Virus record (IMG/VR): IMGVR_UViG_3300020045_003677
Location: 60,098-124,097 of that record
Reading direction: 5' to 3' (one strand)
Length of the DNA: 64,000 nt
Origin: a virus
Lineage: Duplodnaviria > Heunggongvirae > Uroviricota > Caudoviricetes
The translations under genes were made by a program, and so were the position numbers. Under the pieces are notes generated by a model. It did no database searches and was not told the origin of the DNA. It saw only the letters and a program-made list of their open reading frames with translations. This document shows, piece after piece, positions 19,102-53,486 of this stretch. The stretch's first letter is position 1. Every line of letters begins with the position of its first letter.

Positions 19102-19104
19102 GAT

Positions 19105-19176: not shown

Positions 19177-19201
19177 CTAGTTAATTAACTTAAACATAAC
19201 A

Positions 19202-19792: not shown

Positions 19793-19793
19793 T

Positions 19794-20736: not shown

Positions 20737-20820
20737 CGCTTGATTATTCTCAACGGCAGGGGTGCTGGTTGGGGGCGAGTGGATTAGGGTAACCTAGTTC
20801 ACTCTTTTTGTTTACTTAAA

Positions 20821-21159: not shown

Positions 21160-21169
21160 TAAATTAATC

Positions 21170-21526
21170 ATGAAAAACGACAAAGTATTGTTAAGTATTG
21201 TTCTTACTCAGTTTGCTGATGGTAAAGAAGACGTTGCAGTGGTAACACCTGAAGTTGTTGCAGCAGAAGGTACTCTTGCTCCAGAAACTGTAGCTGAAGA
21301 AGACAACGAGCCTATCAGATGTGCTATGGCTGTGACTGTTGATGGACCATCAAGTCTTATCCACCAGTCTTTGGTAAAAGCTTTCACTGAACACGATGAG
21401 CTTATGGGTATCTTCAGAAATGCAATTTCTGAGGTTATGATGGCCAAAATGTTTGGTGGTGGTCTTTCGGATCTTATCGATGCACTTGGTGGCAAAGAAG
21501 AGTCTACCGAAAAAACTGAGGAGTAA
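21170..21526 (+). CDS. Acidic hypothetical protein.
   Basis: 118-aa ORF rich in Glu/Asp. Confidence 0.5.
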   Translation: MKNDKVLLSIVLTQFADGKEDVAVVTPEVVAAEGTLAPETVAEEDNEPIRCAMAVTVDGPSSLIHQSLVKAFTEHDELMGIFRNAISEVMMAKMFGGGLSDLIDALGGKEESTEKTEE

Positions 21527-21535
21527 TATTCTCAT

Positions 21536-21610
21536 GGACCTGTAGCCAAGTTGGTAACGGCACCAGACTCATAATCTGGAGATGCGCGAGTTCGAAGCTC
21601 GCTGGGTCCA
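21536..21610 (+). tRNA. tRNA-Met (anticodon CAU).
   Basis: Canonical cloverleaf. Anticodon stem ccaga/tctgg with loop cuCAUaa and T-loop ttcgaag. Confidence 0.85.
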
Positions 21611-21629
21611 CTAATTTAATTACACTAAT

Positions 21630-21866
21630 ATGCCACTAACAATTCCAGGAAAGTGCTCCTCTTGTAAGCACAAACGAACAGTTCCGGGAGATGCACATAT
21701 TAGATGTGCTAATCCAGACCCTGACATGACGGGATACCCTCATGGTATAAGACAAGGATGGTTCTACTATCCAGTACTATTTGATCCAGTATGGATGACT
21801 AAAGAGTGTAACAACTATGAATGTAAAGACGAAACTCTCAAAACTAATGAGAAAGACCCCGGATAA
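21630..21866 (+). CDS. Small Cys-rich protein.
   Basis: 78-aa ORF with CSSC...C...C cysteine clusters. Confidence 0.45.
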   Translation: MPLTIPGKCSSCKHKRTVPGDAHIRCANPDPDMTGYPHGIRQGWFYYPVLFDPVWMTKECNNYECKDETLKTNEKDPG

Positions 21867-21961
21867 TAATAAATACTGCCCTGTGCTTGCTTTTGGGTAT
21901 GGTAACGGAAGCTTTCTTATAATGATTCCGTGGTTCAGTATTCAATTTAATCGAATTAAAA

Positions 21962-22207
21962 ATGAAAAACGGTGATAAAGTACATTATGTACCCTTTGAT
22001 GGGTGCACTAACGAAGAATGCCGAAATGGGATGATCAAACGTACCTTTACTGGTATGGATGACTATTACTATGTCGCGTATGGATGCCAAGACCCTGCAG
22101 ATATCAACAAACATAAAGGTGAGTTAACCCTCATCAGTAAGTTGAAAGAAAATTGGGTTGAACAGAACTTTCCTGAAGATACCACTGAAGAGGAGGAAGA
22201 ATGGTAA
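21962..22207 (+). CDS. Hypothetical protein.
   Basis: 81-aa ORF. Confidence 0.45.
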   Translation: MKNGDKVHYVPFDGCTNEECRNGMIKRTFTGMDDYYYVAYGCQDPADINKHKGELTLISKLKENWVEQNFPEDTTEEEEEW

Positions 22208-22473
22208 GCAAGTTCGAACAATACAAAGCTGCAATGTTACAATATTGTAGTACTGATGCCCTAGAGCTATTTGAAAAGTTCTTGAAGAAGGAGAAGGTGT
22301 TCGAGAATTTCGAAGCTAATCTAAATCTTCGCGAGAACATGATTATACAAGGCCCACATCTACTTACTGCTAATGCGTTTGTGTGGATGAGTACACCTGA
22401 GAAGTTCGATTTCTGGTGGGGTATTGATGAACGATGGGTAAATTATCTATTGAAACATGGGCCAAAAGCATAA
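22201..22473 (+). CDS. Hypothetical protein.
   Basis: 90-aa ORF. Confidence 0.45.
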   Translation: MVSKFEQYKAAMLQYCSTDALELFEKFLKKEKVFENFEANLNLRENMIIQGPHLLTANAFVWMSTPEKFDFWWGIDERWVNYLLKHGPKA

Positions 22474-22738
22474 AGAAATCGAAGTAAGTGGTACTCAAAG
22501 AGTACGCGTGACCGTCGATCCATTGATTGTGATGGAGAAAGAATATGATAGATCGGTTCCTCGACATACTTTTCTAAAGGAAATAGATGGAAAGTTCTAC
22601 ATACTATGTGATGATCAGCTCGACGATGACATCTCTGATAGCGAGATTAGTAAAGAAGAGTTTGATTATCTTACCAGTCTAAAATTTGCTATTAGAGCAT
22701 TATTAACATTTAGGGTATGGTCTACAAAGGGCAAATAA
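22457..22738 (+). CDS. Hypothetical protein.
   Basis: 93-aa ORF. Confidence 0.45.
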   Translation: MGQKHKEIEVSGTQRVRVTVDPLIVMEKEYDRSVPRHTFLKEIDGKFYILCDDQLDDDISDSEISKEEFDYLTSLKFAIRALLTFRVWSTKGK

Positions 22739-23130
22739 CTCAGCTCGAACCAAACGAGATATTCGTATTTGGTAGTAACACTCAAGGTCGCCATGGTAAA
22801 GGTGCAGCATTAATTGCTAGACAGAAGTTTGGTGCTATCTATGGTCAAGCACGAGGTCGTCAAGGCCAGTGTTATGCTATAGTAACCAAGGATCTTACTA
22901 AGGACTATAATTCGCCCTCAGTCAGTATTGAGTGTATTAAACAGGAGATAAGAGACCTGTATGGCTATGCTCGATTATATCCAGAGTTAAAGTTCTATGT
23001 AGCATACTCGGGTACCGGCACCAATCTAAACAACTATTCAAATCCATTGATGGCAACTATGTTTCGTCAGAGACCCATTCCAGAGAATATTGTGTTTGAA
23101 GAGTCATTCGACAGATTAGTAAACTTTTAA
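22717..23130 (+). CDS. Conserved Rossmann-like domain protein. Possibly a SLOG/DprA-like nucleotide-binding fold.
   Basis: The motif FVFGSNTQGRHGKGAA...GA..G...GQCYAIVTK is a Gly-rich Rossmann-type signature recurrent in phage proteins. Family assignment is tentative. Confidence 0.4.
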   Translation: MVYKGQITQLEPNEIFVFGSNTQGRHGKGAALIARQKFGAIYGQARGRQGQCYAIVTKDLTKDYNSPSVSIECIKQEIRDLYGYARLYPELKFYVAYSGTGTNLNNYSNPLMATMFRQRPIPENIVFEESFDRLVNF

Positions 23131-23271
23131 CATTTTGATACTATATCATGAGAAAAGTAATCTTTTTGCTATTATGCTTGGTGTTAGCCAGTTGTGCAAC
23201 ACCTAAGAAGTTTGGGTACCCAAAGGGAACTCAGATGAATACTGATTGGAGAATTCGTAAACTATAATTAA

Positions 23272-23559
23272 ATGAAACTGAAAGCTATAACTGGAATAAT
23301 AGTATTGTTCCTACTGATACTAACCGGGTATTTGTTATTGAATGAGATGTTTAGTCTAAGTAAGGCTAATGAGATCAATCGACAGAAGACGCTACAACGA
23401 GAGATGTTCAAATTGGGCGCCTCTATGTACAGGTCTCAAGTGATCAATACATATGGTGATTCTATCATATTTCCCATTGACTCACTGTTCATACGCGAAG
23501 TGTTCGATTATAACGATACTCTTGGTCATGAAATTGAGGGTGTAGCCTTCGAAAATTAA
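23272..23559 (+). CDS. Membrane-anchored hypothetical protein.
   Basis: 95-aa ORF with an N-terminal transmembrane segment. Confidence 0.45.
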   Translation: MKLKAITGIIVLFLLILTGYLLLNEMFSLSKANEINRQKTLQREMFKLGASMYRSQVINTYGDSIIFPIDSLFIREVFDYNDTLGHEIEGVAFEN

Positions 23560-23566
23560 CAAGGAT

Positions 23567-23640
<74 letters not shown>

Positions 23641-23655
23641 CTAATAACTTGTACC

Positions 23656-23814
23656 ATGTATACAGAACAAGAAATGCTTGAGTTTGCTGTATGGTGTGGA
23701 ACCAACTTTGTATCATACCATTCGAAGCGTGATGGTGAGAGAATATGGTTTGACCCAGAAAAGGTTGTGTACCAAACAACAAAGCAGTTATTAAAAATTT
23801 GGAGTAATAAATAA
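23656..23814 (+). CDS. Small hypothetical protein.
   Basis: 52-codon ATG ORF below the track cutoff, between tRNA-Arg and the next gene. Confidence 0.3.
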   Translation: MYTEQEMLEFAVWCGTNFVSYHSKRDGERIWFDPEKVVYQTTKQLLKIWSNK

Positions 23815-23831
23815 TTTAACGTAAAAATCAC

Positions 23832-24629
23832 ATGAGCTTAAAATTGAATGTGTTATTGGCGATAACTGACGCACTACGCGTGAAGTTTAAAAATATGGTA
23901 GCCGACCATACGAAGTTTTATCAGAAAGCCCAAGGAGCATTCCTGGGTACAAAAGCAACATATGTCAACCGCGAAGGTTGTTTAGATGATCCAAGCAAGC
24001 GTAAGTTTGTGAAAGTTATCACAACTGTTGACGAAAAGATTGCGTATTTTATCAAAGAGTCGAAAGAGTTTGTTGATGCTCTTATGTCACAAGAGAAAAC
24101 CAATGCATCCGGTATTGCAACTGCAGAACTTGTTGTGAATGGAGAATCTTGGGGTGTATTTACATCATTGGAACTGCTTCGTTTGAAGTCTTTGATCGAA
24201 TCTGCAGAGTTTGGTAGCCTTGAGCAGATGATTGCTGGAATCCCGGTAAGATCAGATGCTGAGATATGGGCCCCAACAACCAAGGAAGAATATGCCGATA
24301 GAGCAATCTATGAAGCTCCTCTTGCCTCTGGTGAATCGCGTACATCTTCTAAAGAGGAGTACATTCTCGAAGATCCGAACCTTTCTAAGCTTACATCTGG
24401 TAGTTATCAGCCTAAGCTTGCTACGCGCACAACTGTATTCACCATTGGTGACTATACTACCCAGGATTTCTCTGGTGAGTGGTCTCAACGTGAGCGTGCC
24501 GGAGCATTGAAAAGGAGAAGTGATCTTCTTATTGCCGTTACAAAAGCCCTTAAAGAATCTAATGACTGTACTGTTATCAACTCTGAGTTGACAGCGGATA
24601 GAATCTTTGGATTTATCTTCAAAGGGTAA
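23832..24629 (+). CDS. Hypothetical protein.
   Basis: 265-aa ORF. Confidence 0.6.
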   Translation: MSLKLNVLLAITDALRVKFKNMVADHTKFYQKAQGAFLGTKATYVNREGCLDDPSKRKFVKVITTVDEKIAYFIKESKEFVDALMSQEKTNASGIATAELVVNGESWGVFTSLELLRLKSLIESAEFGSLEQMIAGIPVRSDAEIWAPTTKEEYADRAIYEAPLASGESRTSSKEEYILEDPNLSKLTSGSYQPKLATRTTVFTIGDYTTQDFSGEWSQRERAGALKRRSDLLIAVTKALKESNDCTVINSELTADRIFGFIFKG

Positions 24630-24792
24630 CACAAAATATTGGTTCAAGCTTTAATCTTAACTTTAACTTTAATCCAGCCCATAGCGCGTTTTAGATTTTT
24701 AGTTGTACCAAAAGATTTAGCTTGAACTTTATTGGTAGGAGTAGTCAGGTGGAAAACAAACGAAAAATTACAGAGAATGTAACTTTTTTGAA

Positions 24793-24830
24793 GTTGTCGG
24801 TCGCGGGTTTGAGTCCCGTCACGGCCTCCA
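24793..24830 (+). tRNA. 3' half of a split, permuted tRNA, predicted Gln-UUG-like. It has an anticodon 3' strand, variable loop, T-arm, acceptor 3' strand and an encoded CCA.
   Basis: gttgt-cggtc-gcggg-tttgagt-cccgt-cacggcc-t-cca. Its acceptor and anticodon strands are exact complements of the 5' half at 25030..25059. Confidence 0.45.
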
Positions 24831-25029
24831 TTATTATCACGTTTGAGGTTTACATAGACATTTCTCCATACTAGGGCAGTTGTGCTTGCTAATAGGTGGT
24901 TAAGACATAGCTCTGCCTATAGTAAAGTACATCACAGTCTTACTTGAAAGAAAGTATAAAGGAAGGTATCCGAGCAAAGAGGGTTTGACTTGGCCCCACC
25001 AAACGTAATATTAGTACAATGCAATAACT

Positions 25030-25059
25030 GGCCGTGTAGCTTAGTGATAGAGCAACAAC
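25030..25059 (+). tRNA. 5' half of the same split, permuted tRNA. It has an acceptor 5' strand, D-arm and anticodon 5' strand.
   Basis: ggccgtg-ta-gctt-agtgata-gagc-a-acaac. It lies 199 nt downstream of its 3' half. D-loop A19 covaries with U56 in the tttgagt T-loop. Confidence 0.45.
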
Positions 25060-25150
25060 CCAAAGAAAATAGCTTTAGCATAAGTACACTTGAATATGAA
25101 ACTACACAGAGACCCCGTCCTAAGAAGGATACTGATCGGATGGGGTACAT

Positions 25151-25222
25151 GGGGAGGTGGTGCAGTGGTAGACACGCACAGCTATGGTGTGAATTGCGTC
25201 GGTTCGAATCCGACCCTCCACA
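25151..25222 (+). tRNA. tRNA-like gene with a non-canonical anticodon arm (possible UAU with C33) and an acceptor mismatch. May be a pseudogene or decoy.
   Basis: The T-arm gtcgg-ttcgaat-ccgac and D-loop cagtggtaga are canonical. Acceptor ggggagg/cctccac has a G-A mismatch at 2-71. Best anticodon stem is 4 bp (caca/tgtg) with loop gcUAUgg. Confidence 0.4.
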
Positions 25223-25419
25223 CAAAAATTGAGCCATGAAAAGAGAAAAGAAAGTAAATGTTAATGATGATGAGCGCTGGCCTGCTTACAATGAACTTAA
25301 GTCTAAGGGTGATACTATAAAAGCTAACAAGCTTAAAGAAGAGATCCTAGATTCATATAAATGGAAGAAGCCATGTCATCATGTGGCAGAGAGGTAATCA
25401 ATAACTTAAATTTATAACA

Positions 25420-25788
25420 ATGAAATTAACATTTAAACATAGGCCTGGGTATCTTTTCTCTCTAAGAGTATTAGATACTAATGGAGATGAGGTAGTTATG
25501 TCTTATTCTGTAGACGATATACTGAAAAGTATACTGGTATCTAAGCAGCAAGAGTCTGGTATTATTACTTACAGCACATTCAAATCAAGTAAACCTTGTA
25601 TTGGTGTTTGTAATGTCAATTGCGGTGATTGGAAAGTTGTTTATTCAAACATTGAAGGTGTTGAAGTAAATGATCCTCTACGTATCTGTATGACCGGGTT
25701 TAAGAAGCATGTTGGTGCACTAAGATCTAAATTATTTAAGACACATTATTTTATCATTGAAACAGATGAATCTACAACTGTTGATTAG
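25420..25788 (+). CDS. Hypothetical protein.
   Basis: 122-aa ORF with an A-rich start context. Confidence 0.55.
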   Translation: MKLTFKHRPGYLFSLRVLDTNGDEVVMSYSVDDILKSILVSKQQESGIITYSTFKSSKPCIGVCNVNCGDWKVVYSNIEGVEVNDPLRICMTGFKKHVGALRSKLFKTHYFIIETDESTTVD

Positions 25789-25789
25789 G

Positions 25790-25951
25790 ATGTTTGTATG
25801 GTTTCCATTGTTGAAACGATACAAAATGATATTTCCTTATAAGGAGCCATATCTATATGCAGGGCTAAATCCTAAATGGAAGAACCCTGATGGGTCACAA
25901 ATGACCATAAAAGAACGTAAATTGCTATACAAAAACTGGATAACAGCATGA
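25790..25951 (+). CDS. Small hypothetical protein.
   Basis: ATG at 25790 right after the upstream stop. The track ORF begins at TTG 25757. Confidence 0.35.
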   Translation: MFVWFPLLKRYKMIFPYKEPYLYAGLNPKWKNPDGSQMTIKERKLLYKNWITA

Positions 25952-26292
25952 CAGAACAAGAAATTAAAGATGGGTCTATCCTGATTGCTAAGTTCTTAGG
26001 ATGGAAACAAGGGTTTCTCTTTGAATGGACTTGCCCTTTTGAACCTTCTAAAAACGGCTTTAGGAATATCTATGCACCTAATGGTAATGGTATGAAATTT
26101 CATACTGACTGGAACTGGTTAATAGCTGGTGCCAAGAAGTTTGATGGTATTCATGACCAGATCGCTGAAGAACATATAGCTGATTATGTGTGTATGTGCG
26201 ATGAACAGGATGATTCTGTTACATGCTATGATATAATGAACGCTTTCGAAGTGTTGGTGAATAACGTTAAATGGTATAATTCGATAGTATGA
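25948..26292 (+). CDS. Hypothetical protein.
   Basis: 114-aa ORF. Confidence 0.5.
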   Translation: MTEQEIKDGSILIAKFLGWKQGFLFEWTCPFEPSKNGFRNIYAPNGNGMKFHTDWNWLIAGAKKFDGIHDQIAEEHIADYVCMCDEQDDSVTCYDIMNAFEVLVNNVKWYNSIV

Positions 26293-26486
26293 TACCAGGA
26301 GATAAGATTCACTATGTTGCCCCTCATGAAGGAGCAGTACCACAGAACGGTATGTTCAAGTCTTTGAATGAGTTCGATAAAACACATATCTTTGTAGTGT
26401 TTAACTGTGGAGAAGACTGGGAACGGTACAAGGACTATACAGGACAAAATACGCCCATATCCCGGGTCTTTCCGGGTTGGGTATAA
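26289..26486 (+). CDS. Hypothetical protein.
   Basis: 65-aa ORF overlapping the upstream stop. Confidence 0.4.
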   Translation: MIPGDKIHYVAPHEGAVPQNGMFKSLNEFDKTHIFVVFNCGEDWERYKDYTGQNTPISRVFPGWV

Positions 26487-26719
26487 CTTATTACCTACTG
26501 AGGCAGAATTAGTGAAATAGGCGAGTTAACGCTCATACGGCGCCTAAGAAGGACGCACCACTAAGTCATTCTAAGATGACCATTCTGATAAAGGCATGGC
26601 GGCTGCAGATGGCAGTGTCAATATTTGCGTGCTCCACTACTTAGAAGTGGATAGGTAACAACATTTGCATCGTAAGGTGTAAGTAGTATGCGTAATAGTG
26701 TACATAAAAGCGTATGCTT

Positions 26720-26794
26720 TGCGAGGTGGCGCAGATTGATTAGCGCACTCCCGACGAAAGGGAGAGGTCGTAGGTTTGAATCCTGCCCTCGCTA
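26720..26794 (+). tRNA. tRNA-like gene with a non-canonical anticodon loop. Anticodon CGA with A33, a short variable arm, a U56 T-loop and a 1-72 mismatch.
   Basis: gcgc-agattgatta-gcgc D-arm, anticodon stem ctccc/gggag with loop gaCGAaa, and T-arm gtagg-tttgaat-cctgc. D-loop A19 covaries with U56. Confidence 0.5.
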
Positions 26795-26801
26795 CAAAAT
26801 T

Positions 26802-26875
26802 CATGAGATAGCTCAGCCCGGTAGAGCAGCGGACCCATATTCCGCGTGTCGGTGGTTCAAATCCATCTCTCGTGA
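26802..26875 (+). tRNA. tRNA with anticodon CAU (Met or Ile2-like). Its anticodon loop is unusual, with C33.
   Basis: Acceptor catgaga/tctcgtg, D-arm gctc-agcccggtaga-gagc, anticodon stem gcgga/tccgc with loop ccCAUau, and T-loop ttcaaat. Confidence 0.7.
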
Positions 26876-26895
26876 CTAATTTTAAATTAATAACA

Positions 26896-36099: not shown

Positions 36100-36351
36100 A
36101 TGAACCGTATTTTATCATTATTAGGATTAAATCCATTGTCTCGTTTGAAAAAAGCTTCTAAAGCTTACACAAAAAGTTCGCGTAACATCGAGAAACATGC
36201 ACCAAATGCTGCTGCAGAGATCGACGCAATGATCAACAACCTGGACGTAGCTCGTTCGGCTGCTTTGGACGTTAAATCCTTCGTGAATGACCTACATCAG
36301 GTTGCAAAAACAACAACTTCCGGCCTCGGTACTCTGACTGAAAAGAAATAG
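36100..36351 (+). CDS. Hypothetical protein.
   Basis: 83-aa ORF. Confidence 0.45.
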   Translation: MNRILSLLGLNPLSRLKKASKAYTKSSRNIEKHAPNAAAEIDAMINNLDVARSAALDVKSFVNDLHQVAKTTTSGLGTLTEKK

Positions 36352-36422
36352 TTCCGGCCCTGTAAATTAAATTAGAGTTTAGTTAAATTTATTCCTACTT
36401 AAAGATTACAACAAAAAACTCT

Positions 36423-36695
36423 ATGGCTAACGTCAATAAAGTTGAAAGAGAGCTCGGAGAAGCTCTTAACCGTGCCTACTATGAGGCCAGTGAAATCACC
36501 ATCAGTAGTGATTGGAGAATTCGTAATTTAGTGTCTAATGCTACTGCTAAAAACACCTACATGAGGCGTGGAGAAGCAGTATTCAAGTATGCTAAAGGAC
36601 AATTAACCTACATCGTCCCTATTAAGTTTTTGGATGAAGTGCAGATGGCTGTACTGATGTCCGTAGTTGGTAACCCGGTAAAAGTTAAAAAGTAA
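36423..36695 (+). CDS. Hypothetical protein.
   Basis: 90-aa ORF. Confidence 0.45.
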   Translation: MANVNKVERELGEALNRAYYEASEITISSDWRIRNLVSNATAKNTYMRRGEAVFKYAKGQLTYIVPIKFLDEVQMAVLMSVVGNPVKVKK

Positions 36696-36943
36696 TGATA
36701 CGCATCTCGATATTTATTTTGAAGGATACGCTACTGCTTGAGAAGCAGAGAGTTGTATGTGCCAAGACGTTGAGAAACCAGGGTATGAATCCCCAGTTAG
36801 CCGTTGAAGAAGCCTTTAAGGCTATATCAGATGTTCAGTGTGTTTATAGTGTAGTGTCTGCAGGCAAAGAGGTGAGTGCACCTGCAATTGCTAACGATAT
36901 TACACAAGGTAAAGCATACCGGATGACTGTTTCAAGTATCTAA
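36695..36943 (+). CDS. Hypothetical protein.
   Basis: 82-aa ORF. Confidence 0.45.
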   Translation: MIRISIFILKDTLLLEKQRVVCAKTLRNQGMNPQLAVEEAFKAISDVQCVYSVVSAGKEVSAPAIANDITQGKAYRMTVSSI

Positions 36944-36993
36944 AATCTTAGGGGTGTGTCTTATGATGCACCCCTTCAATATTTAAATCGATT

Positions 36994-38421
36994 ATGTTTC
37001 AACCAAATTTTTGTACAGCGACTGACTTCTATAAGTTTGGTCACTGGTGTCAATACCCTAAGGGTATGGATAGTATCAACTCATACTGTGAGGCCCGTGA
37101 AGGTGCCCTATTTCATGATATTGTGTGGAATGGTATTCTACCAATACTAAAGGACTTCTTTGAAGGTGACGTGATTACACGTGATAACATTGAAGAGGCC
37201 AATGAAATCGTAACCGGTATGGGTGGTCATCCAGCATATTTTAACCGGGCCATGTGGGAAGAGATTCTCACTAAACACAATGGTAGATTACCGTTGTCTA
37301 TTAAGGCATTGCCCGAAGGTACTGTGGTACCGCCATCAACTCCACTATTCTGTATTACCAACACAGGTGGAGCTATTACACAACCACTTGTAAATCACAG
37401 CGAAACTCTATTAATGCATGTCTGGAGCTCAACTACGGTCGCGAGTGTATCTCGCTATATCAAGAAGAACATTCTGGATAAGTGGGCTAAGTTAACCGGA
37501 ACACCCGAACTAACCATATGGCAGTTGCATGACTTCGGATTCCGAGGTGTAAGTAGCTGGCAGACTGCAGTATACTCTGGTATGGGTCACTTGATCACAT
37601 GTCGTGGTACTGACACGTCTGATGCTGTTCGCGGTATTCGTCATTATTATGGTACAAAAGAGATCTTTGGAAACTCTGTATGGGCTACTGAACATTCTGT
37701 CGCAACTTCTTATGGTCCAGGTCGTGGTGAAGTAGACTATGTTCTTGCTCAGCTTAATGCAGCTCCAGATGATGCAATTGTATCTATGGTTATGGATAGC
37801 TATGACACGTTCAACTTTGCGCAGAATGTTGTTGGTCATCCAGAAGTACTAGCTAAAATCAAAGCACGTTCTGGTCGCACAGTATTCCGTCCTGATAGTG
37901 GTGATCCGGTAGCCGTTAATCTGAGAGTATTGGATATTCTTGGTAACGTATTGGGATTCACTGTCAATGGACTGGGTTACAAAGTATTGAACCATAATGT
38001 AGGAGTGTTACAGGGAGATGGTATGGATTACCAAACCATTGATACCCTGTTTGAAGCCATTATAACAATTGGTCACTGGTCATCTGACAACTTAGTTGTT
38101 GGTTCGGGTGGTGGGTTGTTGCAGAAATGGAATCGTGACACACTGAGATTTGCTATCAAGGCATCTCATGGTTCAATCAATGGTGTTGGGTTTGATATCT
38201 TCAAAGACCCAGCAACAGCAAATGTTGGTAATGAAACAAAAGCATCGAAACGTGGACTGTTAAAGGTTGCGCAGATCGGTAACACATTCACTACTATCAG
38301 TTCCACTACTTGTGCTCCTAACATGTTTAATCAATATGTTGATGCCATGGAACCTATTTTCCTCAATGGGGATATTATGGGTACACATGATTTCAATCTG
38401 ATCAAAAAGAGAGCAATCTAA
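36994..38421 (+). CDS. nadV: Nicotinamide phosphoribosyltransferase (NAMPT, NadV-like).
   Basis: N-terminus ATDFYKFGHWCQYP matches the TDSYK motif. LHDFGFRGVSS, RGTDT, FRPDSGDP, LQGDGMD and GSGGGLLQK are colinear with NAMPT signature blocks. Confidence 0.85.
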   Translation: MFQPNFCTATDFYKFGHWCQYPKGMDSINSYCEAREGALFHDIVWNGILPILKDFFEGDVITRDNIEEANEIVTGMGGHPAYFNRAMWEEILTKHNGRLPLSIKALPEGTVVPPSTPLFCITNTGGAITQPLVNHSETLLMHVWSSTTVASVSRYIKKNILDKWAKLTGTPELTIWQLHDFGFRGVSSWQTAVYSGMGHLITCRGTDTSDAVRGIRHYYGTKEIFGNSVWATEHSVATSYGPGRGEVDYVLAQLNAAPDDAIVSMVMDSYDTFNFAQNVVGHPEVLAKIKARSGRTVFRPDSGDPVAVNLRVLDILGNVLGFTVNGLGYKVLNHNVGVLQGDGMDYQTIDTLFEAIITIGHWSSDNLVVGSGGGLLQKWNRDTLRFAIKASHGSINGVGFDIFKDPATANVGNETKASKRGLLKVAQIGNTFTTISSTTCAPNMFNQYVDAMEPIFLNGDIMGTHDFNLIKKRAI

Positions 38422-39446
38422 TGAGAGAACTATTGGAATTACTTACCGCAGCTGGGAAAACGTTTTGTATAACGGAACTTGGCTGCGGTATGCCGATAGC
38501 TCATGGATTCATGGGACTATCTGGGTCCAGTAAGGTACTTAAGTATGCTAACTGCCCCTATAGCAAAGAAGTTCAGGAGATCATGATACCTAACATCTTA
38601 CATAGATCCGTTAGTGTTGAACGAGTTGGGTTTCTTTTAAAAGCTTTGGAGAATTACGATGCAGACTTTGATATTGTGTATTCTTTACAAGCTGGTGAGG
38701 ATAAAGAATGTCATGGGTTCATCGCCATTAACTCCGAGGGTATGGTGGAAGGTGCTGTTGCATATCATTTTACCTTTGGTTACAATATTAGTAAAGTTGA
38801 AGCCGGTGCTAGAATGATTGGGTTGTTTATTGCTATTGTCAAGAGACATGTACTCAAGATAAACTTCAACATGGGTCAGATCGACGGCGCCTTCATACAA
38901 CATGGTAGGGATTGGGACTTTTATCCTGAACTATTACCACTTAACCACAGATCATTTGTAATCACCAATGGTGGAGAGTGGATGCGTACTACAGTATTCT
39001 TGAGAGATCTAGGTCATCTTGGAATTATCAAAGGAAGCTTTAATCCATATCATGAAGGTCATGAACAATTGGTGGAGGAAGCTTTCCGTCAGCAATATGT
39101 TCCAGTATTATCGCTTACAGGAGAAACTGTTGAAGGAAAGAAAGCCAGTGCTACCGAGCTTGTTGGAAGAGCTAAAACAACTCAGCGTAACTGCATCATA
39201 GATTCGGACAACACAAAGTTTATGGATCTTATTATGGTTCTACGCAATATCTATCGGTTTGAGGGTCAGATTGGTATCTTTGCAGGTATCGATGTGTATC
39301 ATAGGATGGAAGAAGCTTTGTTCGAATTACCCCATGTTCAGTTCTATGTCTATCACAGAGAAATGAATGTGGATAATGTGTTATTTCTGTCATCAAAGTT
39401 TCCTACAACATCATCTACTAAAATCAGAGAACATGCACTCGATTAA
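38421..39446 (+). CDS. Two-domain protein. The C-terminal half is a nicotinamide/nicotinate mononucleotide adenylyltransferase-like domain. The N-terminal half is unassigned, possibly CinA-C/PncC-like.
   Basis: GSFNPYHEGH is the (H/T)xGH nucleotidyltransferase motif, with a downstream SxT-region. N-terminal ITELGCGMPIA weakly resembles the CinA C-domain AESCTGG motif. Confidence 0.65.
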   Translation: MRELLELLTAAGKTFCITELGCGMPIAHGFMGLSGSSKVLKYANCPYSKEVQEIMIPNILHRSVSVERVGFLLKALENYDADFDIVYSLQAGEDKECHGFIAINSEGMVEGAVAYHFTFGYNISKVEAGARMIGLFIAIVKRHVLKINFNMGQIDGAFIQHGRDWDFYPELLPLNHRSFVITNGGEWMRTTVFLRDLGHLGIIKGSFNPYHEGHEQLVEEAFRQQYVPVLSLTGETVEGKKASATELVGRAKTTQRNCIIDSDNTKFMDLIMVLRNIYRFEGQIGIFAGIDVYHRMEEALFELPHVQFYVYHREMNVDNVLFLSSKFPTTSSTKIREHALD

Positions 39447-39882
39447 AACACTACTCGAGAAAGCCTGGGCAGATGCTGCTTCAAAGGGGTATGACCACGT
39501 TGTTATTGCAGTTGACCTGCATGGTACTATGGTTGATTCCAAAGTATTCAATGCAGCTCCGGGTAACATCGAAATGAAGGTGCAGGCGTCAATATTTAGA
39601 AGTGCTGTAACGGCATTAAAACTATTGTCTCAGCATCCTTCAGTCACAATGTTTATCTACAGTGGTACTAAGCGCAGAAAACTTGAGCAAGTACTTGCAG
39701 AACTGATGAGTAAATACGGTATTGAAATCGATATCGATTATTCTTCAGATACTCAACACTCTATACAGTCATTTAAGAACAAACCATATTTTGGTATCTT
39801 ATTGGATGATAAAGCAGGGTTTGACCCCGATACTGATTGGGATGAAATCACACGAATCTTACCTAACTTAAAAACGCTATGA
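39433..39882 (+). CDS. HAD-like hydrolase, putative phosphatase or nucleotidase, with Asp+2 replaced by His.
   Basis: VVIAVDLHGTMVDS is a motif-I-like DxDGT, here D-L-H-G-T. GILLDDKAG matches motif IV. The start is set at ATG 39433, and the track ORF starts at 39367. Confidence 0.4.
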   Translation: MHSIKTLLEKAWADAASKGYDHVVIAVDLHGTMVDSKVFNAAPGNIEMKVQASIFRSAVTALKLLSQHPSVTMFIYSGTKRRKLEQVLAELMSKYGIEIDIDYSSDTQHSIQSFKNKPYFGILLDDKAGFDPDTDWDEITRILPNLKTL

Positions 39883-40409
39883 CACCAGAGCAAAAACAAC
39901 AGATGGAGGAAACTCCATTTCCAATAACGTTTTCTTGTATTGATCTCATCCTCACATGTAGAGGGTGTTTGGTATTTATTACCAAATCATACAAAGACAA
40001 GTATTTACGCTTGTGTGGCGGTATGGTTGATACAACCGACCTCTCTCTTAAAGCAGCAATGCTTAGAGAAGCCCATGAAGAGATGGGGGTTGACCCACGG
40101 TTTGTTCGTATAGATGAAGGATTCACTGTACAATCATTTCTTACCCAAGACTATGGTAGGTACAATCCGGATACTTCGAAGCATCGACTTCGTACTACAT
40201 TATTCACTGCTGAGTATGTACACCCACGAATTGGTACTCCACAAGAGGAGTTACTGAAAGCAGGAGATGATGCGGATGGGTTGAAATTTATTCCCATCCC
40301 ACAGTTATACGACATCAACTGGGTGTTGGAGAACGTAGCCCCAGGGCATATTCCATTACTTTATTATTGGATGGGACAGCAATATGACGCAAATCATCGG
40401 TTATTTTAA
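39879..40409 (+). CDS. Nudix hydrolase (ADP-ribose pyrophosphatase-like).
   Basis: Nudix box GGMVD...LKAAMLREAHEEMGV (GX5EX7REUXEEXGU). Confidence 0.75.
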   Translation: MTPEQKQQMEETPFPITFSCIDLILTCRGCLVFITKSYKDKYLRLCGGMVDTTDLSLKAAMLREAHEEMGVDPRFVRIDEGFTVQSFLTQDYGRYNPDTSKHRLRTTLFTAEYVHPRIGTPQEELLKAGDDADGLKFIPIPQLYDINWVLENVAPGHIPLLYYWMGQQYDANHRLF

Positions 40410-40650
40410 TGGGTTCCCGGTAAATTATGACGTGGATAGTGAGATGGCCTCTTGTAAAGGAGTAGTCTTCTCACTGTCTGACGCCATTTCGGTATCCAAA
40501 GGGGGTAGTAATTTGGGAACTGCTAAGCACGTTGAACATCTACATGGCTATATCAAAATTGATTGTCTAGCCGATACCCTACAAGATTTCAAACAATTAA
40601 TTAAAACTGCACGTAATGTCAAAAGATCCAAATCTAAGAGAAGTACATAA
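40384..40650 (+). CDS. Hypothetical protein.
   Basis: 88-aa ORF. Confidence 0.45.
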   Translation: MTQIIGYFNGFPVNYDVDSEMASCKGVVFSLSDAISVSKGGSNLGTAKHVEHLHGYIKIDCLADTLQDFKQLIKTARNVKRSKSKRST

Positions 40651-41986
40651 TTACACCATTAAAGGGTTCAAACAAGAGTTGTATTATGCAATGCACCTTG
40701 CTGTCGTTGACCTATTTGGTGACGATGTATACTCTAAAATGGAAGGTATGTCGGGGGATAGAAGCCCTGAGTTTATAACAATAGTTGACCCAGACACCGG
40801 TAAAAATATTAGAATGCCTATTGGTATGATAAGTATTTCGGAGGCCGGTCAATTAGCTAAAGCCAGAAGGCACCGTCGTGGGTATGATAGCGATGATGAC
40901 GATGATGCTGGAAACAACAACATCAATATCAAATGCCGGTATGAAGCTGAAGATATGACTATGTCGTTTGAAGTTAATACTCCTAAGCATAGAGCTGAGG
41001 AAGCTGAACTTCTTGTAGATGGTATTCGTACCAATGCAATTCAGAAATCATTCTTACAGAACAAAGTCATACGCCCGGACACATCTGAGGATAATCAGGA
41101 AGTACATATCATACCTATTAACCGAATCAAAGGTCAGGATGTATTTGTGTATTCTTCTATCGAACGTGGGCTTGTTCCATTGGTATCAAGACTAACTGGT
41201 ACAAGCGAGGGTCTTGGCATCAATAACAAATACTCACTGCTATTACATGGTAAAGGTGGTACTGGTAAGACATCTATGATGTTCAACTATGTAGCTCCTA
41301 TTGCTGTTGAGAATGGGTATACTGTAATATTCTGCGATAACGCTAAAGAATACAGTAAGATTCTGGATATTGCCGAAGTACTTGTTGAAGAACGTGGTTG
41401 GAAAGTTATCACTATTGTGGAAGATATTGATCAAGCGTTTGATGGTGAAGTTCGTGGAGACATGCAACAGACCATTCTTAACAAGATTGATGCCGGCTAC
41501 AACAAGGACATGAAACTTATTAACGTACTTACAACCAACTATATCGAGAGAATATCTTCGTATATGTTGCGTGCAGGTCGTATCTCTAAGATTCTTCATG
41601 TTGGAGGGTTGATTCGTACCGATATCCCACAATTCTGTGAGAGATATATGGGTACAATGTTTGACCCTACTGACAACTATACCAACTGCATCGAACTTCT
41701 TGAGGATATGCCGGCATCGTTTGTTCGCGAGATCATCGATGAGTCAAAAACTCTTGCGGCCTTTGATGGTGTAGCGAAGATTAGTGGTTACCTATTCGAG
41801 ACCACTATTAAATCCTACAAACACCAAGAGGAACTAACCTTTAAACAGGGTGTGGATGCTAAAGACAAAGTGATCGATGCTTTGCGTGTTGTTGCCGATG
41901 TTATTGGTATTAATCCACAAAACCTGGCCACTATCATGCACATGGATAATGGCGAACCAGTGTCAATGGGCGGAGAATTCAAATGA
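40616..41986 (+). CDS. AAA+ ATPase.
   Basis: Walker A GKGGTGKTS, Walker B IVEDIDQ, and a sensor-1-like TTN. Confidence 0.65.
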   Translation: MSKDPNLREVHNYTIKGFKQELYYAMHLAVVDLFGDDVYSKMEGMSGDRSPEFITIVDPDTGKNIRMPIGMISISEAGQLAKARRHRRGYDSDDDDDAGNNNINIKCRYEAEDMTMSFEVNTPKHRAEEAELLVDGIRTNAIQKSFLQNKVIRPDTSEDNQEVHIIPINRIKGQDVFVYSSIERGLVPLVSRLTGTSEGLGINNKYSLLLHGKGGTGKTSMMFNYVAPIAVENGYTVIFCDNAKEYSKILDIAEVLVEERGWKVITIVEDIDQAFDGEVRGDMQQTILNKIDAGYNKDMKLINVLTTNYIERISSYMLRAGRISKILHVGGLIRTDIPQFCERYMGTMFDPTDNYTNCIELLEDMPASFVREIIDESKTLAAFDGVAKISGYLFETTIKSYKHQEELTFKQGVDAKDKVIDALRVVADVIGINPQNLATIMHMDNGEPVSMGGEFK

Positions 41987-42441
41987 GTGATCAAGTAAAC
42001 TATCACGACTACCTTAAGAAAGAAGACTACTACGAAAGTAGAAATATTGGCAAAGGTAGACGTGCAAAGACTTGTGAGCATTGTGGTGGGAATATCCCTG
42101 TAGGAGAAGCCCACACCATGCATCATTTTTACCCAGATTTTGAAGCTGCGCCCACACATAATAGGTGTAATGATGCTTTCTTAGCTTCGTTGCTTCCAAA
42201 CGATGAGCCAGAGGATTACAATGATACCCACCTCTCCGAGTTCGAGAAGGGTAAAGTTAACGAGTTCTTAGAACATGATATGATATGCCATCAAATGCTT
42301 AATTTCATACGTTCTACTGGTAACACGGATTCAGCTATAAATCATCTTACAGGTAGTCACGGTATGAGAAAGGTAGTAGCTGAAGACTATATTAATGCTT
42401 TGTGTAAGATACACGATATTGATCTATTTAAATTGCCTTAA
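41983..42441 (+). CDS. Cys/His-rich hypothetical protein, possibly a zinc-binding or HNH-like fold.
   Basis: CEHCGG...H..HH...C cluster in a 152-aa ORF. Confidence 0.4.
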   Translation: MSDQVNYHDYLKKEDYYESRNIGKGRRAKTCEHCGGNIPVGEAHTMHHFYPDFEAAPTHNRCNDAFLASLLPNDEPEDYNDTHLSEFEKGKVNEFLEHDMICHQMLNFIRSTGNTDSAINHLTGSHGMRKVVAEDYINALCKIHDIDLFKLP

Positions 42442-42477
42442 ATTAAAGATATTATTCATTAATATTTTTTAGTTAAC

Positions 42478-45039
42478 ATGGCTGTAATCGAAGACAAATA
42501 CATCGAGACCGAGGGTGGGATTAGAAAGAACATCGACAAGGACAGTATGCCCTTAGCGTTGGACATCCTACAGAGAGGGCTTTATGCATTTCCAATTCCA
42601 TCTACAATTAGGGAGTTAGCATCAAACTCCTATGACGCTATTAAGGAACGTGACGTTGCTTTAGCTATCATAAAAGGTGAAACTTCTGTTGAAGATCACT
42701 TCGATGTAAACAAACAAGATGGTATCTATCACTCATCCGGGTGGGATCCATCATATTTTGACGAAGCTTGGTTATCTAAAGACCCTTGTGTTCATATTTA
42801 TTATGAGGAAGGTAGTGCTAAGGATGTACTGAGAATAGTTGACAACGGTGTTGGGTTAGGACAGAAAAGACTTGTCGGATACTTTCAACTTAACTACTCG
42901 AGTAAGCGTGCTAATAAGGATGCTTTAGGTAAGTGGGGATTAGGAAGTAAAGTTGCTTTATCGTTAAATGTTGACTCTTTTAGAGTTATCAATCGTTATA
43001 ATGGTAAGAGAACTAAATTCGATGTGTACTTGGATAAAGTGGATCCAATCATACCAAGGTTTAGTGATGGTAAGGAGAATGGCAGCATTCATCTTACTGA
43101 TACGTGTACTGCGTATTACGAAGAGACCACCGAAATGAATGGTCTTGAGATCCAGATCGATATCAAGAAGCATAACAAGAAGTTATTGTTTGAAGCTATG
43201 CAGTCTCAGTTAATGTATATGCCTGATATTAAGGTGTACACAAGAGCTCAGGGTGCTATGACTTATACCATGATGGATATACGTGCAAAAGAATTATACC
43301 GCGACAACGATATTATTATCTCCGAGTCCACAGTATATGACAGACCGCACATTCTTATTGGTGCCGGCAAAGCTTTGATCAACTATGGATTGATTGCTTT
43401 TAACGAGCTGGAAATCGAACCAAAACGAGGCTCTGTAGGACTTATCATGGACATTAATGACATAGAGGTTACTCCGTCGAGAGAAGCTCCTGTGTGGTCC
43501 ACAAAGACCCGAAAAGCCGTACTCGAAAAATACAACAAGGTAACTAAGACTGCAGCATTATTTGTAAACCAGAGTCTGGCCGCAGAGACTGACTATATTG
43601 ACTGGATGGTGAAAGCCGACCAGACTATGTCGGCCTTAAAGCATGGTAGTAACTCTAGTGTGATTGGTAGATTGGCTTCGATCATCGATGCTTCTTCTAT
43701 CACGAATGTCACTTATCCACTGAACTCTCAAGTAGAGTTCTCTCATAAAGTTAATGAGATGTTAGGTACTAAGCTGACAGCTAGAACAATACGCTATGAC
43801 AGGTATAGCAGAAAGATAGAAAGAAAGGCCATCGAGAGTCCCGGTGCATTATCTAAGATTGTGTACTTTACCGACGGTGCCGCTGATCCAATGAAAGACA
43901 GGTACATTTTCGATACCCAAGGTGAGTTTGTTCTTATCAACGGTAAAGAGGATTACAAATCTGACTTCTTTGCTAAGTTGGTTCTATCTTCTGGTAGACT
44001 GCAGTCGTACGATGACGTAATTGTTCCTGATGATATCCTTGAAGTCTACAAGACTGCAGAGATTGAAGAAGAGGAGACGTCAACTGATGGTACTACTACC
44101 ACTGTAGCTATTGACCGTAGTGCTATTCGTAAGGCTAATGCTATGATCCCGGTTCACTTTATTGCTAAGAACTACACTTCATATGTGTTCAGTTCTAAAG
44201 ATACCTATACCAGTGACATGCTATCGTTATTTGATAATGATGAAGTAGCTGTATATGGAACCTCTTTGGACAGAAATGACATGAAGGAGATTGCCTCGTT
44301 CTTTCCACACGGGTACATAAAATGCTTCGATAACTGGAGAGATACCTCTAGTAAAATCGACCAGGTTACCAACATCCCTCATTATGCATGCTTCAACCCC
44401 CACGCTAAGCCGATCAACATGATCATCATAGCTAAAGAGAACGTAAAGTATGTACTCGGTTCCGACAAGTATAAAACTATTCCGGAATTTGTGATTAAGT
44501 CCTATGATAAGGCGAAAGGTAAATTAGTATTCTCCGACGATATCAGAGCCGCAGCCACTGCCAATGTTATTGAGACAATGGTTAAGGAGTATGGCTTAAT
44601 GGGTATTCTTCGAGATGAGAAGACAGAGTTTATCTTTGATGAGGATTACAAGGAGTTTGTACATTTATACCGTGGTTGGTTTGAGAATGGTTATGACGCA
44701 CCCCAGGCGATTAATCGCACAGATTTCTATAGTCAAGCTATAGCCATTCAACTATCTAATTCGGGTATTGTACCAATTGATGTGGATAACCTTATCGTTG
44801 AGCTCAACGCCATGGTTCCGGAATGCTTATGCGATTCCCTGGATCAGGTTAAAGACGTCGATATTCTGGATATTGCATTGATTAAAAAGTGGCAAGCTAC
44901 CTTCATAAAAGTAGCCCCATTCAAGGACCTCATCTCTTTATTTGTGGATAAATATTATAACAATGGTTCTACAACCAAGGTTATTGTTGGTGCACAGATC
45001 AAAGAATACATCACTTTGAAGAATGATGAAATCGTATAA
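42478..45039 (+). CDS. GHKL-family ATPase domain protein (Hsp90/HtpG-, MutL- or MORC-like N-terminus), 853 aa.
   Basis: RELASNSYDAI matches the ELxxNSxDA Bergerat motif I (Hsp90: ELISNASDAL). VDNGVGLG matches motif II DNGxGh (HtpG: SDNGVGMT). Confidence 0.6.
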   Translation: MAVIEDKYIETEGGIRKNIDKDSMPLALDILQRGLYAFPIPSTIRELASNSYDAIKERDVALAIIKGETSVEDHFDVNKQDGIYHSSGWDPSYFDEAWLSKDPCVHIYYEEGSAKDVLRIVDNGVGLGQKRLVGYFQLNYSSKRANKDALGKWGLGSKVALSLNVDSFRVINRYNGKRTKFDVYLDKVDPIIPRFSDGKENGSIHLTDTCTAYYEETTEMNGLEIQIDIKKHNKKLLFEAMQSQLMYMPDIKVYTRAQGAMTYTMMDIRAKELYRDNDIIISESTVYDRPHILIGAGKALINYGLIAFNELEIEPKRGSVGLIMDINDIEVTPSREAPVWSTKTRKAVLEKYNKVTKTAALFVNQSLAAETDYIDWMVKADQTMSALKHGSNSSVIGRLASIIDASSITNVTYPLNSQVEFSHKVNEMLGTKLTARTIRYDRYSRKIERKAIESPGALSKIVYFTDGAADPMKDRYIFDTQGEFVLINGKEDYKSDFFAKLVLSSGRLQSYDDVIVPDDILEVYKTAEIEEEETSTDGTTTTVAIDRSAIRKANAMIPVHFIAKNYTSYVFSSKDTYTSDMLSLFDNDEVAVYGTSLDRNDMKEIASFFPHGYIKCFDNWRDTSSKIDQVTNIPHYACFNPHAKPINMIIIAKENVKYVLGSDKYKTIPEFVIKSYDKAKGKLVFSDDIRAAATANVIETMVKEYGLMGILRDEKTEFIFDEDYKEFVHLYRGWFENGYDAPQAINRTDFYSQAIAIQLSNSGIVPIDVDNLIVELNAMVPECLCDSLDQVKDVDILDIALIKKWQATFIKVAPFKDLISLFVDKYYNNGSTTKVIVGAQIKEYITLKNDEIV

Positions 45040-52547: not shown

Positions 52548-53486
52548 ATGTTTAACGAAATAAAAACAGTGCTAAGCACAGATGAGAATGTGGTTAAATT
52601 CGTGTTCACTACCACAGATGCCGTAGCGGAAGCAGTTCTATACAAGTATCCAACCTATGAAGATCGTACAGTTATTTGCTGTTCGACTCAAAGTGGATGT
52701 CCGGTAGGCTGTGTATTTTGCGGTACAGGCAAGTTCTTTACACGTAACTTAACTGCAGATGAGATAGTTCAGCAGATAAAGACTGCAGTAGACCACACAG
52801 GTATTGATCCGGTCTTCTCGAAGAAGTTCCAGATTATGTTCATGTCAATGGGAGAGCCGTTATTGAATATCGACGCTGTTATTGACGCTATTGAGATGCT
52901 GAGTATGATGTATCCAAATGCTGACTTGCTAGTAAGTACGTCTTTACCCAGCAATGCCCTGTTTAAACATGGTATATCTGCAGGTAATATGGATACTAGT
53001 AATTTAGACAAGCTTGTTAGTCTTGCTAGAATATTTCCTAAGATTGGTCTACAAATTTCATTGCATGAATCTACTGACCAAGCTCGTACGAAGCTGATCC
53101 CTACAAACACTGCAACTATATTTCAGATATCTCAGGCAGCAAAAGCATTTCTGTATGCTACTGGACGTAAAGCATTCTTAAATTATTGTGTACATGAAGG
53201 TAACTCTTCTGATGTTGATATCCAACATCTACTTGCTGCGTTTCATCCAAATGAATGCGAGTTCACTTTATCTGTTATCTGTGAGAAAGACCAATCTATG
53301 AAGAATGCTATCGAAGAAAAGGTTGCTATGGTAGTTGACTTTGCATCACGTATGGGTGCAGTAGGATATTCGACGCGAGTATTCAACCCGGCAGGACAAG
53401 ATGATATTGGTGGTGGATGCGGACAGTTATGGTTTGTTCAGGAATGGGCTAAAAAACATAAAAATGAAGACAGAACTTGCAGTTAG
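52548..53486 (+). CDS. Radical SAM enzyme of the RlmN/Cfr family (RNA adenine C2/C8 methyltransferase-like), lacking the N-terminal domain.
   Basis: TVICCSTQSGCPVGCVFCGTGKFFTRNLTADEIVQQI aligns with RlmN [37 protein letters not shown] (CX3CX2C). IMFMSMGEPLLNI matches VVMMGMGEPLLNL. QISLHESTD matches AISLHAPND. C-terminal GGGCGQLW matches the conserved DAACGQL cysteine. Confidence 0.75.
   Translation: MFNEIKTVLSTDENVVKFVFTTTDAVAEAVLYKYPTYEDRTVICCSTQSGCPVGCVFCGTGKFFTRNLTADEIVQQIKTAVDHTGIDPVFSKKFQIMFMSMGEPLLNIDAVIDAIEMLSMMYPNADLLVSTSLPSNALFKHGISAGNMDTSNLDKLVSLARIFPKIGLQISLHESTDQARTKLIPTNTATIFQISQAAKAFLYATGRKAFLNYCVHEGNSSDVDIQHLLAAFHPNECEFTLSVICEKDQSMKNAIEEKVAMVVDFASRMGAVGYSTRVFNPAGQDDIGGGCGQLWFVQEWAKKHKNEDRTCS

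Follow-up and report, generated by a model that had tools for sequence, protein, structure and literature searches.

We describe here a four-gene module for the rebuilding of nicotinamide adenine dinucleotide (NAD+) in a virus of the Caudoviricetes (IMG/VR record IMGVR_UViG_3300020045_003677), located at 36994-40409 on the + strand of the 64,000-nt stretch of DNA that was analysed (positions 60,098 to 124,097 of the record; hereafter the window). Its four open reading frames (ORFs), A to D, are translationally coupled as a single operon, whose most likely role is the two-step conversion of nicotinamide (NAM) to NAD+ known from NARP2, one of the phage pathways that rebuild NAD+. ORF A (36994-38421, +; 475 aa) encodes a nicotinamide phosphoribosyltransferase of the type that uses phosphoribosyl pyrophosphate (PRPP-type Nampt), ORF B (38421-39446, +; 341 aa) a fusion of two domains, ORF C (39433-39882, +; 149 aa) a protein predicted to have a haloacid dehalogenase (HAD)-like fold, and ORF D (39879-40409, +; 176 aa) a stand-alone Nudix hydrolase. 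The reading we favour, and hold to be reasonably probable, is a NARP2-like route from NAM through nicotinamide mononucleotide (NMN) to NAD+, in which the adenylyltransferase of the second step is fused to a pseudo-deamidase. A phage NAD+ salvage operon of this layout had been proposed in a first-pass annotation of the sequence, and the proposal stands: the coordinates were confirmed, and the operon holds a genuine Nampt, a protein of the adenylyltransferase superfamily and a separate Nudix hydrolase. The Pfam check proposed there is passed by ORFs A (PF18127, PF04095), B (PF01467) and D (PF00293). One detail had to be corrected, since ORFs A and B are joined not by an ATGA overlap but by a 1-nt TAATG overlap (TAA 38419-38421, ATG 38421-38423); an ATGA overlap is found instead between ORFs C and D (39879-39882). 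ORFs B and C share 14 nt, and ORF D overlaps the following ORF by 26 nt. These gene overlaps indicate co-translation of A to D. For ORF C, the mechanical call was longer (39367-39882, 171 aa); the ATG at 39433 is favoured as its start because its homologues (L001, L020, L021, P0034-36), found in four related contigs, are 149 aa long.

The first enzyme is the most securely assigned. ORF A is taken to catalyse the conversion of NAM and PRPP to NMN because of strong full-length homology and intact catalytic motifs. It scores 427.9 bits against the NCBIfam model NF006629, above the equivalog cutoff of 405, contains PF18127 (NAMPT_N) and PF04095 (NAPRTase), and matches phrog_448 at E 7e-123, in keeping with the NadV-like NAMPT first proposed. 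Against structures of human Nampt it reaches 285 bits (E 1e-83) and against that of Xanthomonas Nampt 268 bits, but only 183 bits against 9W5X and 9W5W, the structures of the SPbetaL1 Namat. The ORF A motif GSGGGLLQKWNRD aligns to human GSGGGLLQKLTRD, the Namat motif GSX.X.X.TRD is absent, and the catalytic His is kept within ATEHS. These sequence features make ORF A a genuine Nampt of the PRPP type, like that of NARP2; the alternative, a Namat of NARP1, is ruled out by the motif, by the structure scores and by the lack of an Adps in the window. Among cultured phages, the best-ranked NAMPT match is gp217 of Tunturiibacter phage Tunturi_5 (39.6% identity). The gene is uninterrupted in the window, unlike in the related contigs L001 (5707-8001) and L021 (2433-4727), where an insert of ~860 bp interrupts NAMPT after residue 140. 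This insert encodes a 206-aa, Cys-rich ORF of HNH-like appearance, which suggests a homing endonuclease or an intron. An ORF with a faint LAGLIDADG match also occurs in L021, at the place of the single ~850-aa rIIA-like gene seen in the window and L001.

The distinctive part of the module is the N-terminal region of ORF B. About 195 residues fall outside PF01467; the domain of some 190 aa noted in the first-pass annotation is thus real, yet it need no longer be called unassigned. The whole ORF B model, built with AlphaFold2 (AF2) from a 22-sequence alignment, has a mean predicted local distance difference test (pLDDT) value of 90.4 and a predicted template modelling score (pTM) of 0.88, and its top 50 PDB matches in Foldseek are CinA/PncC or NadD proteins and nothing else. 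CinA/PncC structures (2a9s, 4cta, 5v01, 5kvk, 6mr3) match at E 2e-6 to 1e-5, with a best probability of 1.00, a target TM score of 0.66-0.71 and a root-mean-square deviation of 2-3 Å over ~155 columns. The corresponding Pfam family, PF02464, lies below gathering in ORF B (15.2 vs 23.5 bits; E 0.09, or 0.017 for the N-domain alone; five of eight relatives weak). The homology to PncC is nonetheless significant, as judged first by profile-profile comparison and then with a larger profile: an earlier 8-sequence profile of the N-domain reached a probability of 75.6% to PncC in hhalign, and a 40-member family profile reached 93.6% (E 2e-7, 138 columns) against a nine-sequence PncC/CinA alignment. 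CinA was not found among PDB sequences with the 8-sequence profile. Phmmer matches of ORF B among PDB sequences to Staphylococcus aureus DHFR (E 0.009, residues 229-299) and to viral FLIP were weak, and we treat them as chance because they are at odds with the confident fold matches. From the alignments, Foldseek and hhalign, the CinA/PncC-fold domain is placed at residues 1-143 (38421-38849, +), followed at residues 144-195 (38850-39005, +) by a linker that is β-rich in the model and carries two conserved arginines, Arg189 (invariant in a 9-sequence alignment) and Arg195 (40/40 in the family alignment).

Residues were mapped onto Escherichia coli PncC (EcPncC) by hhalign, and conservation was counted in 40 family sequences. 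The catalytic dyad is gone. The nucleophile Ser29 corresponds to Leu20, a position held mainly by Met, Ile, Leu or Val, and the general base Lys61 to Gln52, which is Gln in 31 of 40 sequences, Lys not being among the common residues. The residues that bind the ligand, on the other hand, are apparently retained: Tyr47 (EcPncC Tyr56, NMN binding) in all 40 sequences, Ser37 (Ser46, NMN binding) in 38, and Lys125 (Arg142, phosphate binding) as Arg in 31 and Lys in the remaining 9. In AtCinA, Tyr58 and Arg145 contact the NMN phosphate, and the S31A and K63A mutants are inactive (PMC5384747). The E. coli S29A and K61Q mutants are inactive as well, yet bind NMN with a Kd of ~40-125 µM; K61Q prefers NMN and does not bind nicotinic acid mononucleotide (NaMN), and Y56A and R142A show no NMN-dependent stabilisation in thermal-shift assays (PMC8231969). 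Thus, on model and alignment, the ORF B N-domain is a CinA/PncC fold without the Ser/Lys dyad, and we infer from its sequence that it would bind NMN without deamidating it, because the family naturally carries the substitutions by which PncC becomes a mere binder of NMN. With bacterial PncC (PF02464) it has in common the fold, the E-x-G-x-G, GxS and PYS segments and, as predicted by alignment, the Tyr and Arg/Lys that bind the NMN phosphate; it differs in the Ser29 and Lys61 equivalents, which are hydrophobic and Gln, and in its fusion to an adenylyltransferase. The comparison with engineered EcPncC S29A/K61Q has its own limits: the phage family is naturally K61Q-equivalent and without the Ser, but the engineered proteins are laboratory point mutants of a normal enzyme, whereas the phage domain is only ~15-20% identical to PncC.

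The C-terminal domain (residues 196-341; 39006-39446, +) conforms to the NadD and eukaryotic NMNAT family, whose ATP-binding and dinucleotide-forming motifs are GSFNPxHxGH, GxD and SSTKIR. ORF B keeps all three, and HxGH and SSTKIR are conserved across the family. In ORF B the first motif reads GSFNPYHEGH, with His211 present in 33 and His214 in 37 of the 40 sequences, and SSTKIR is kept in nearly all sequences that extend to the C-terminus. Bacterial NadD structures (4ymi, 4s1o, 5db4) match the model at E 8e-6 to 2e-5 and weaker. PF01467 covers residues 203-337. From motifs and model, we infer a NadD/NMNAT-like nucleotidyltransferase that would adenylylate a mononucleotide; an NAD+-forming role is assigned because of the fold, the motifs and the conserved linkage to NAMPT. 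The earlier call of an NMNAT-domain protein therefore holds at the level of the NMN/NaMN adenylyltransferase superfamily, but not as a NatV-type enzyme, NadD being nearest. ORF B has only the HxGH turn in common with the NMNAT portion of gp218, a NadM-Nudix protein of Tunturi_5 annotated "cytidyltransferase" (BLASTP E 0.011); by this comparison, made against gp218, its adenylyltransferase is not of the NadM type found in the NatV of KVP40. A tblastn search of 50,697 phage records with ORF B, at a threshold of E 1e-3, gave no match, and for this reason a search seeded with the KVP40 Nmnat would probably miss it.

ORF D matches PF00293 with 34.5 bits (cutoff 21.1). Among NCBIfam models, it fits best to the Nudix half (positions 199-344) of PRK05379.1-4, the bifunctional NMNAT/Nudix family (E 7e-6), and it matches the Nudix half of Tunturi_5 gp218 at E 2e-11 (BLASTP). 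The Nudix box, GGMVDTTDLSLKAAMLREAHEEMGV, has an intact REx2EE core relative to the reference GX5EX7REUXEEXGU, although its first Glu is replaced by Asp and its spacer is one residue longer; gp218 shares this pattern, which also occurs in X29/NUDT16. By sequence, ORF D is a Nudix hydrolase akin to that half of NadM-Nudix (NatV-type) proteins which acts as an ADP-ribose pyrophosphatase; this bears out the ADP-ribose pyrophosphatase-like label given at first, and ORFs B and D do place the two activities on separate polypeptides, as had also been stated. NadM-Nudix models are the best or nearly the best match of the Nudix genes in two distant lineages as well (below). Given this likeness, we consider that the NatV-type Nudix was kept as a separate gene and the NMNAT half replaced.

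This arrangement is not confined to the window. Three divergent lineages of phages have the fusion beside genes for a Nudix protein and NAMPT: the window clade (the window, L020, L001 and L021), a second lineage (L003-L005) that also carries Prs, and L015, a 374-kb jumbo-phage contig with PARP, NADAR and second Nudix genes nearby. Within the first clade, the window is syntenic with L001, a metagenomic contig of 170 kb, and has nearly the same gene order as L020. An exhaustive phmmer search with the N-domain against 1.84 billion representatives returned 33 proteins, of which 32 are genuine (P0065, of 2017 aa, was excluded as a repeat artefact); most have 330-450 aa and the same two-domain build, and in nearly every full-length homologue recovered the N-domain is fused to the adenylyltransferase. 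In BFVD, two viral proteins match both domains, a "cytidyltransferase-like" protein of an uncultured Caudovirales and an uncharacterised Terrestrivirus protein. The fusion is thus rare (32 genuine cases in 1.84 billion representatives), and INPHARED phages lack it. A 275-aa PncC-like relative without GSFNP (P0015; L023 6001-6828), present on 22 contigs, has eukaryote-like neighbours, namely a mitochondrial carrier, C2H2 zinc fingers and a Rieske oxygenase; from this context, the N-domain family extends beyond phages. In the literature on phage CinA/PncC, NadD and NAMPT we found no description of such a fusion. The pseudo-deamidase-like/adenylyltransferase fusion is the new part, the general kind of pathway being already known.

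Set beside the known pathways, the module comes closest to NARP2 (KVP40 NadV plus the NatV NMNAT-Nudix protein). A PRPP-type Nampt, an adenylyltransferase and an ADP-ribose-type Nudix are common to the two, and by analogy the predicted chemistry (NAM to NMN to NAD+) and the expected replenishment of NAD+ would be the same. They differ in that the window adenylyltransferase is NadD-like with an N-terminal PncC-like domain whereas that of KVP40 is NadM-type, and in that the window Nudix is a separate gene, with the HAD-like gene in between, whereas KVP40 NatV is a fusion of NMNAT and Nudix. The NatV-homologous Nmnat by which NARP2 is recognised was not found, whether by tblastn over the phage records, by comparison with gp218 or among the nearest structures; the rest being NARP2-like, we file the module as NARP2-like with a non-orthologous second enzyme. 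Tunturi_5 occupies a similar position, with gp217 adjacent to a gp218 whose Nudix half is homologous to ORF D; there, however, the NMNAT half is of the archaeal NadM type and lacks a PncC-like domain. NARP1 (Adps and Namat) and NARP3 (PnuC and NadR) likewise rebuild NAD+. Unlike NARP1, the window has no Prs/Adps-like gene in the 64 kb seen, where tblastn with phage Prs gave no match better than E 0.5 and no Pribosyltran family member occurs among the ORFs scanned, and ORF A lacks the selectivity-helix motif of Namat. As for NARP3, PnuC was not found among the ORFs scanned, nor a NadR-type kinase in or beside the operon (NadR model TIGR01526: E 0.013, 14.7 bits vs a cutoff of 341). On this sequence evidence, NARP1 and NARP3 are excluded for the 64 kb seen.

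ORF C, which lies between ORFs B and D, is less easily placed. Its family comprises 26 proteins, 22 of which were aligned. Motif I reads D28-L-H30-G-T, within an invariant A-V-D-L-H-G, and His30 is invariant in the 22 sequences; with DxH in place of DxD, the general acid/base Asp is replaced in ORF C. Also invariant are K117, at the motif III position, and D125 and D126, the DD of motif IV in the LLDDKAGF segment; the Ser/Thr of motif II (IYSGT/LWSS) was placed by eye in the alignment. The AF2 model (pLDDT 89) finds a modest best fold match in BT_0820 (2obb; E 1.3e-3, target TM score 0.67), followed by the HAD domains of KdsC and trehalose-6-phosphate phosphatase (Foldseek probability 0.8-0.96), and the protein matches phrog_1238 at E 3e-4; tblastn against phage genomes gave no match. 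ORF C is thus probably a phosphatase-type accessory protein of HAD-like fold, as far as alignment and model can tell. A 239-aa gene at its position in L004 was considered as a homologue and rejected for want of similarity; the HAD-like gene therefore lies outside the conserved core. In L020, the apparent ORF C counterpart (7013-7462; P0036, from a contig which at 27,463 bp has the length of L020) is ~52% identical to window 39433-39882, and the L020 ORF B is 98% identical to that of the window. If P0036 and this ORF B do share contig L020, ORF C was exchanged or diverged rapidly within a near-identical operon.

In the scheme we favour, ORF A would first join nicotinamide to PRPP to give NMN. 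The PncC-derived N-domain of ORF B would bind this NMN without deamidation and either hand it to, or gate, the fused adenylyltransferase, and in doing so might keep it from the host PncC; the C-domain would then adenylylate NMN to NAD+. ORF D would probably cleave ADP-ribose, the product of NADase defences, to AMP and ribose-5-phosphate, the latter recyclable to PRPP. By analogy with NARP2, the benefit of the operon is likely to be an NAD+ supply that holds during infection, also where the host has NAD+-depleting defences, and on the same analogy the module may have an anti-defence role. More tentatively, and as a possibility that we would not put above the alternatives taken together, the PncC-like domain may be a naturally evolved module for NMN capture and hand-off, or for sensing, that shields NMN and makes this a distinct architecture of NAD+ reconstitution. 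Bolder still would be to read the invariant Glu/His/His residues as the site of a new reaction, with a nicotinamide or ADP-ribose nucleotide as substrate.

Several observations weigh against the scheme. PF01467 is barely over its cutoff in ORF B (21.6 vs 21 bits), and NCBIfam NadD/NMNAT models match no better than E 3e-4, with alignments confined to the HxGH region. NaMN is generally the preferred substrate of NadD enzymes, and as the closest structures of the modelled C-domain are of this kind, its substrate could be NaMN and not NMN. The N-domain has invariant polar residues of its own (E19, H98 and H116, with K49, R62 and Q90 nearly so in the 40 sequences), and E19, H98, H116, K49 and R62 could, from their conservation, form a different active site. 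Some of its relatives occur in cellular or eukaryote-like contexts with no adjoining NAD genes. Finally, contigs of T4-like phages carry relatives of ORF C near dCMP deaminase but not near NAD genes, and unrelated genes stand at its position in the distant lineages. Hence, the HAD-like fold named in the first-pass annotation is retained, yet its part in the pathway is uncertain because phages also carry members of the family at a distance from NAD genes.

How far the operon serves defence evasion bears on the first alternative, a general auxiliary metabolic operon that raises NAD+ for replication and not for counter-defence, a role that was reportedly first proposed for KVP40. The module does sit among rIIA/rIIB, sigma factor, DNA polymerase and helicase genes, and the two roles are compatible. 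NARP2 itself raises NAD+ in cells without a defence system, but it also overcomes Thoeris and other NADase systems (bioRxiv 10.1101/2024.02.11.579819). Moreover, a Nudix that would recycle ADP-ribose and a NADAR protein in the window fit a conflict over ADP-ribose and NAD+, and a purely metabolic role seems to us rather doubtful, if plausible.

The conserved polar residues of the N-domain admit another explanation, that its own Glu/His/His/Lys/Arg set makes it a new enzyme or sensor for some other nicotinamide or ADP-ribose nucleotide, be it an ADP-ribose-derived immune signal, NAD-capped RNA or an NAD adduct. This set is unlike that of PncC, and ADP-ribose genes of NADAR and PARP type occur in the window and L015 neighbourhoods; yet the residues retained from PncC are its NMN binders, and fusion to the adenylyltransferase in nearly all full-length homologues points to a shared ligand. 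We regard this explanation as unlikely. An active PncC-like domain joined to a NadD-like domain, taking NMN to NaMN and then to nicotinic acid adenine dinucleotide (NaAD) for the host NadE to finish, is very unlikely, although it would unite the bacterial pyridine nucleotide cycle in one protein. The two folds, PncC and NadD, are indeed those of consecutive enzymes of that cycle, the general preference of NadD for NaMN agrees with it, and CinA-family genes adjoin nadE in plasmid records. However, the whole family lacks counterparts of the catalytic Ser and Lys, and mutation of either abolishes activity (PMC5384747, PMC8231969). Such a route would also carry an extra ATP cost and depend on the host, NadE not being found among the window ORFs scanned; a simple active PncC-NadD fusion was down-weighted for the missing dyad. 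Finally, it is very improbable that the C-domain acts on another substrate, such as pantetheine phosphate, FMN or glycerol-3-phosphate, and adjoins NAMPT by coincidence: its Pfam match is to a generic cytidylyltransferase-like family at threshold and a phosphopantetheine adenylyltransferase (PPAT) model matches weakly (E 0.006), again within the HxGH region, but all non-CinA proteins among the top 50 PDB matches are NadD, the fusion partner has an NMN-binding fold, and in all three divergent lineages the gene is linked to NAMPT and to a Nudix of the NadM-Nudix type.

The genes around the NARP2-like operon point to a large phage (rIIA/rIIB-like proteins, a sigma factor, a DNA polymerase, a Dda-like helicase, a 5'-3' exonuclease), and early and replication genes surround the module. 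Phage genomes gave no megablast match to the complete module, no INPHARED genome is close to the window, and PADLOC gave no match for ORFs B, C and D. In the 50-nt gap preceding the NAMPT start lies a hairpin (36950-36975, +) with an 11-bp GC-rich stem of the GGGGUGUGUCU/AUGAUGCACCCC type and a 4-nt loop; its folding energy is -18.8 kcal/mol (z-score -4.28), and none of 200 shuffles was equally stable. It may be an operon boundary, a terminator, a processing site or an RNA-stability element, and its membership of the module is uncertain. Promoter-like and terminator-like sites at 36000-42600 are not commoner than in shuffled sequence. An insertion of variable occurrence follows the NAD module immediately downstream: in the window and in L020, the Nudix gene is separated from the next conserved gene by an 88-aa ORF and one for a 456-aa AAA+ ATPase (40384-41986, +; PF00004, phrog_10440, weak PADLOC IetA match at E 2e-4), neither of which is found at that position in L001 and L021.

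Further away, a NADAR-domain protein is encoded ~23 kb upstream of the module (14036-14578, +; PF08719 E 2e-27, PADLOC PDC-M42C E 1e-12). The replication/early region also holds an SPFH/Band-7 protein (31583-32440, +; PF01145 E 8e-20) and a sub-threshold radical-SAM match (52548-53486, +; PF04055, 28.6 bits, cutoff 29.5). ARAGORN reports 13 tRNA genes in the window, scattered between small ORFs at 13119-32530 (+). One, at 25151-25223 (+), has a CTA anticodon (amber suppressor) and is reported as tRNA-Pyl; three calls are irregular in that the anticodon has four bases in two of them (gaag, taaa) and two bases in the third (aa). Such tRNAs may reflect stop-codon suppression or recoding, or else be degenerate.

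NARP1, NARP2 and NARP3 form a recently recognised, broad-spectrum phage answer to NAD+-depleting immunity. Our findings suggest that the second step of a NARP2-type pathway is possible with a non-orthologous enzyme overlooked by homology searches, so that surveys may undercount such pathways. If this is true, the fusion could explain some of the ~6% of Nampt-encoding phages reported to be without an Nmnat homologue. The N-domain itself illustrates an apparent natural turn of an NMN deamidase fold into a likely ligand-binding domain, by the kind of substitution that was engineered into EcPncC to obtain NMN biosensor probes. If NMN binding holds, it would be usable as a natural NMN-recognition element, and the fused enzyme could aid NMN and NAD+ bioproduction in hosts whose PncC drains NMN.

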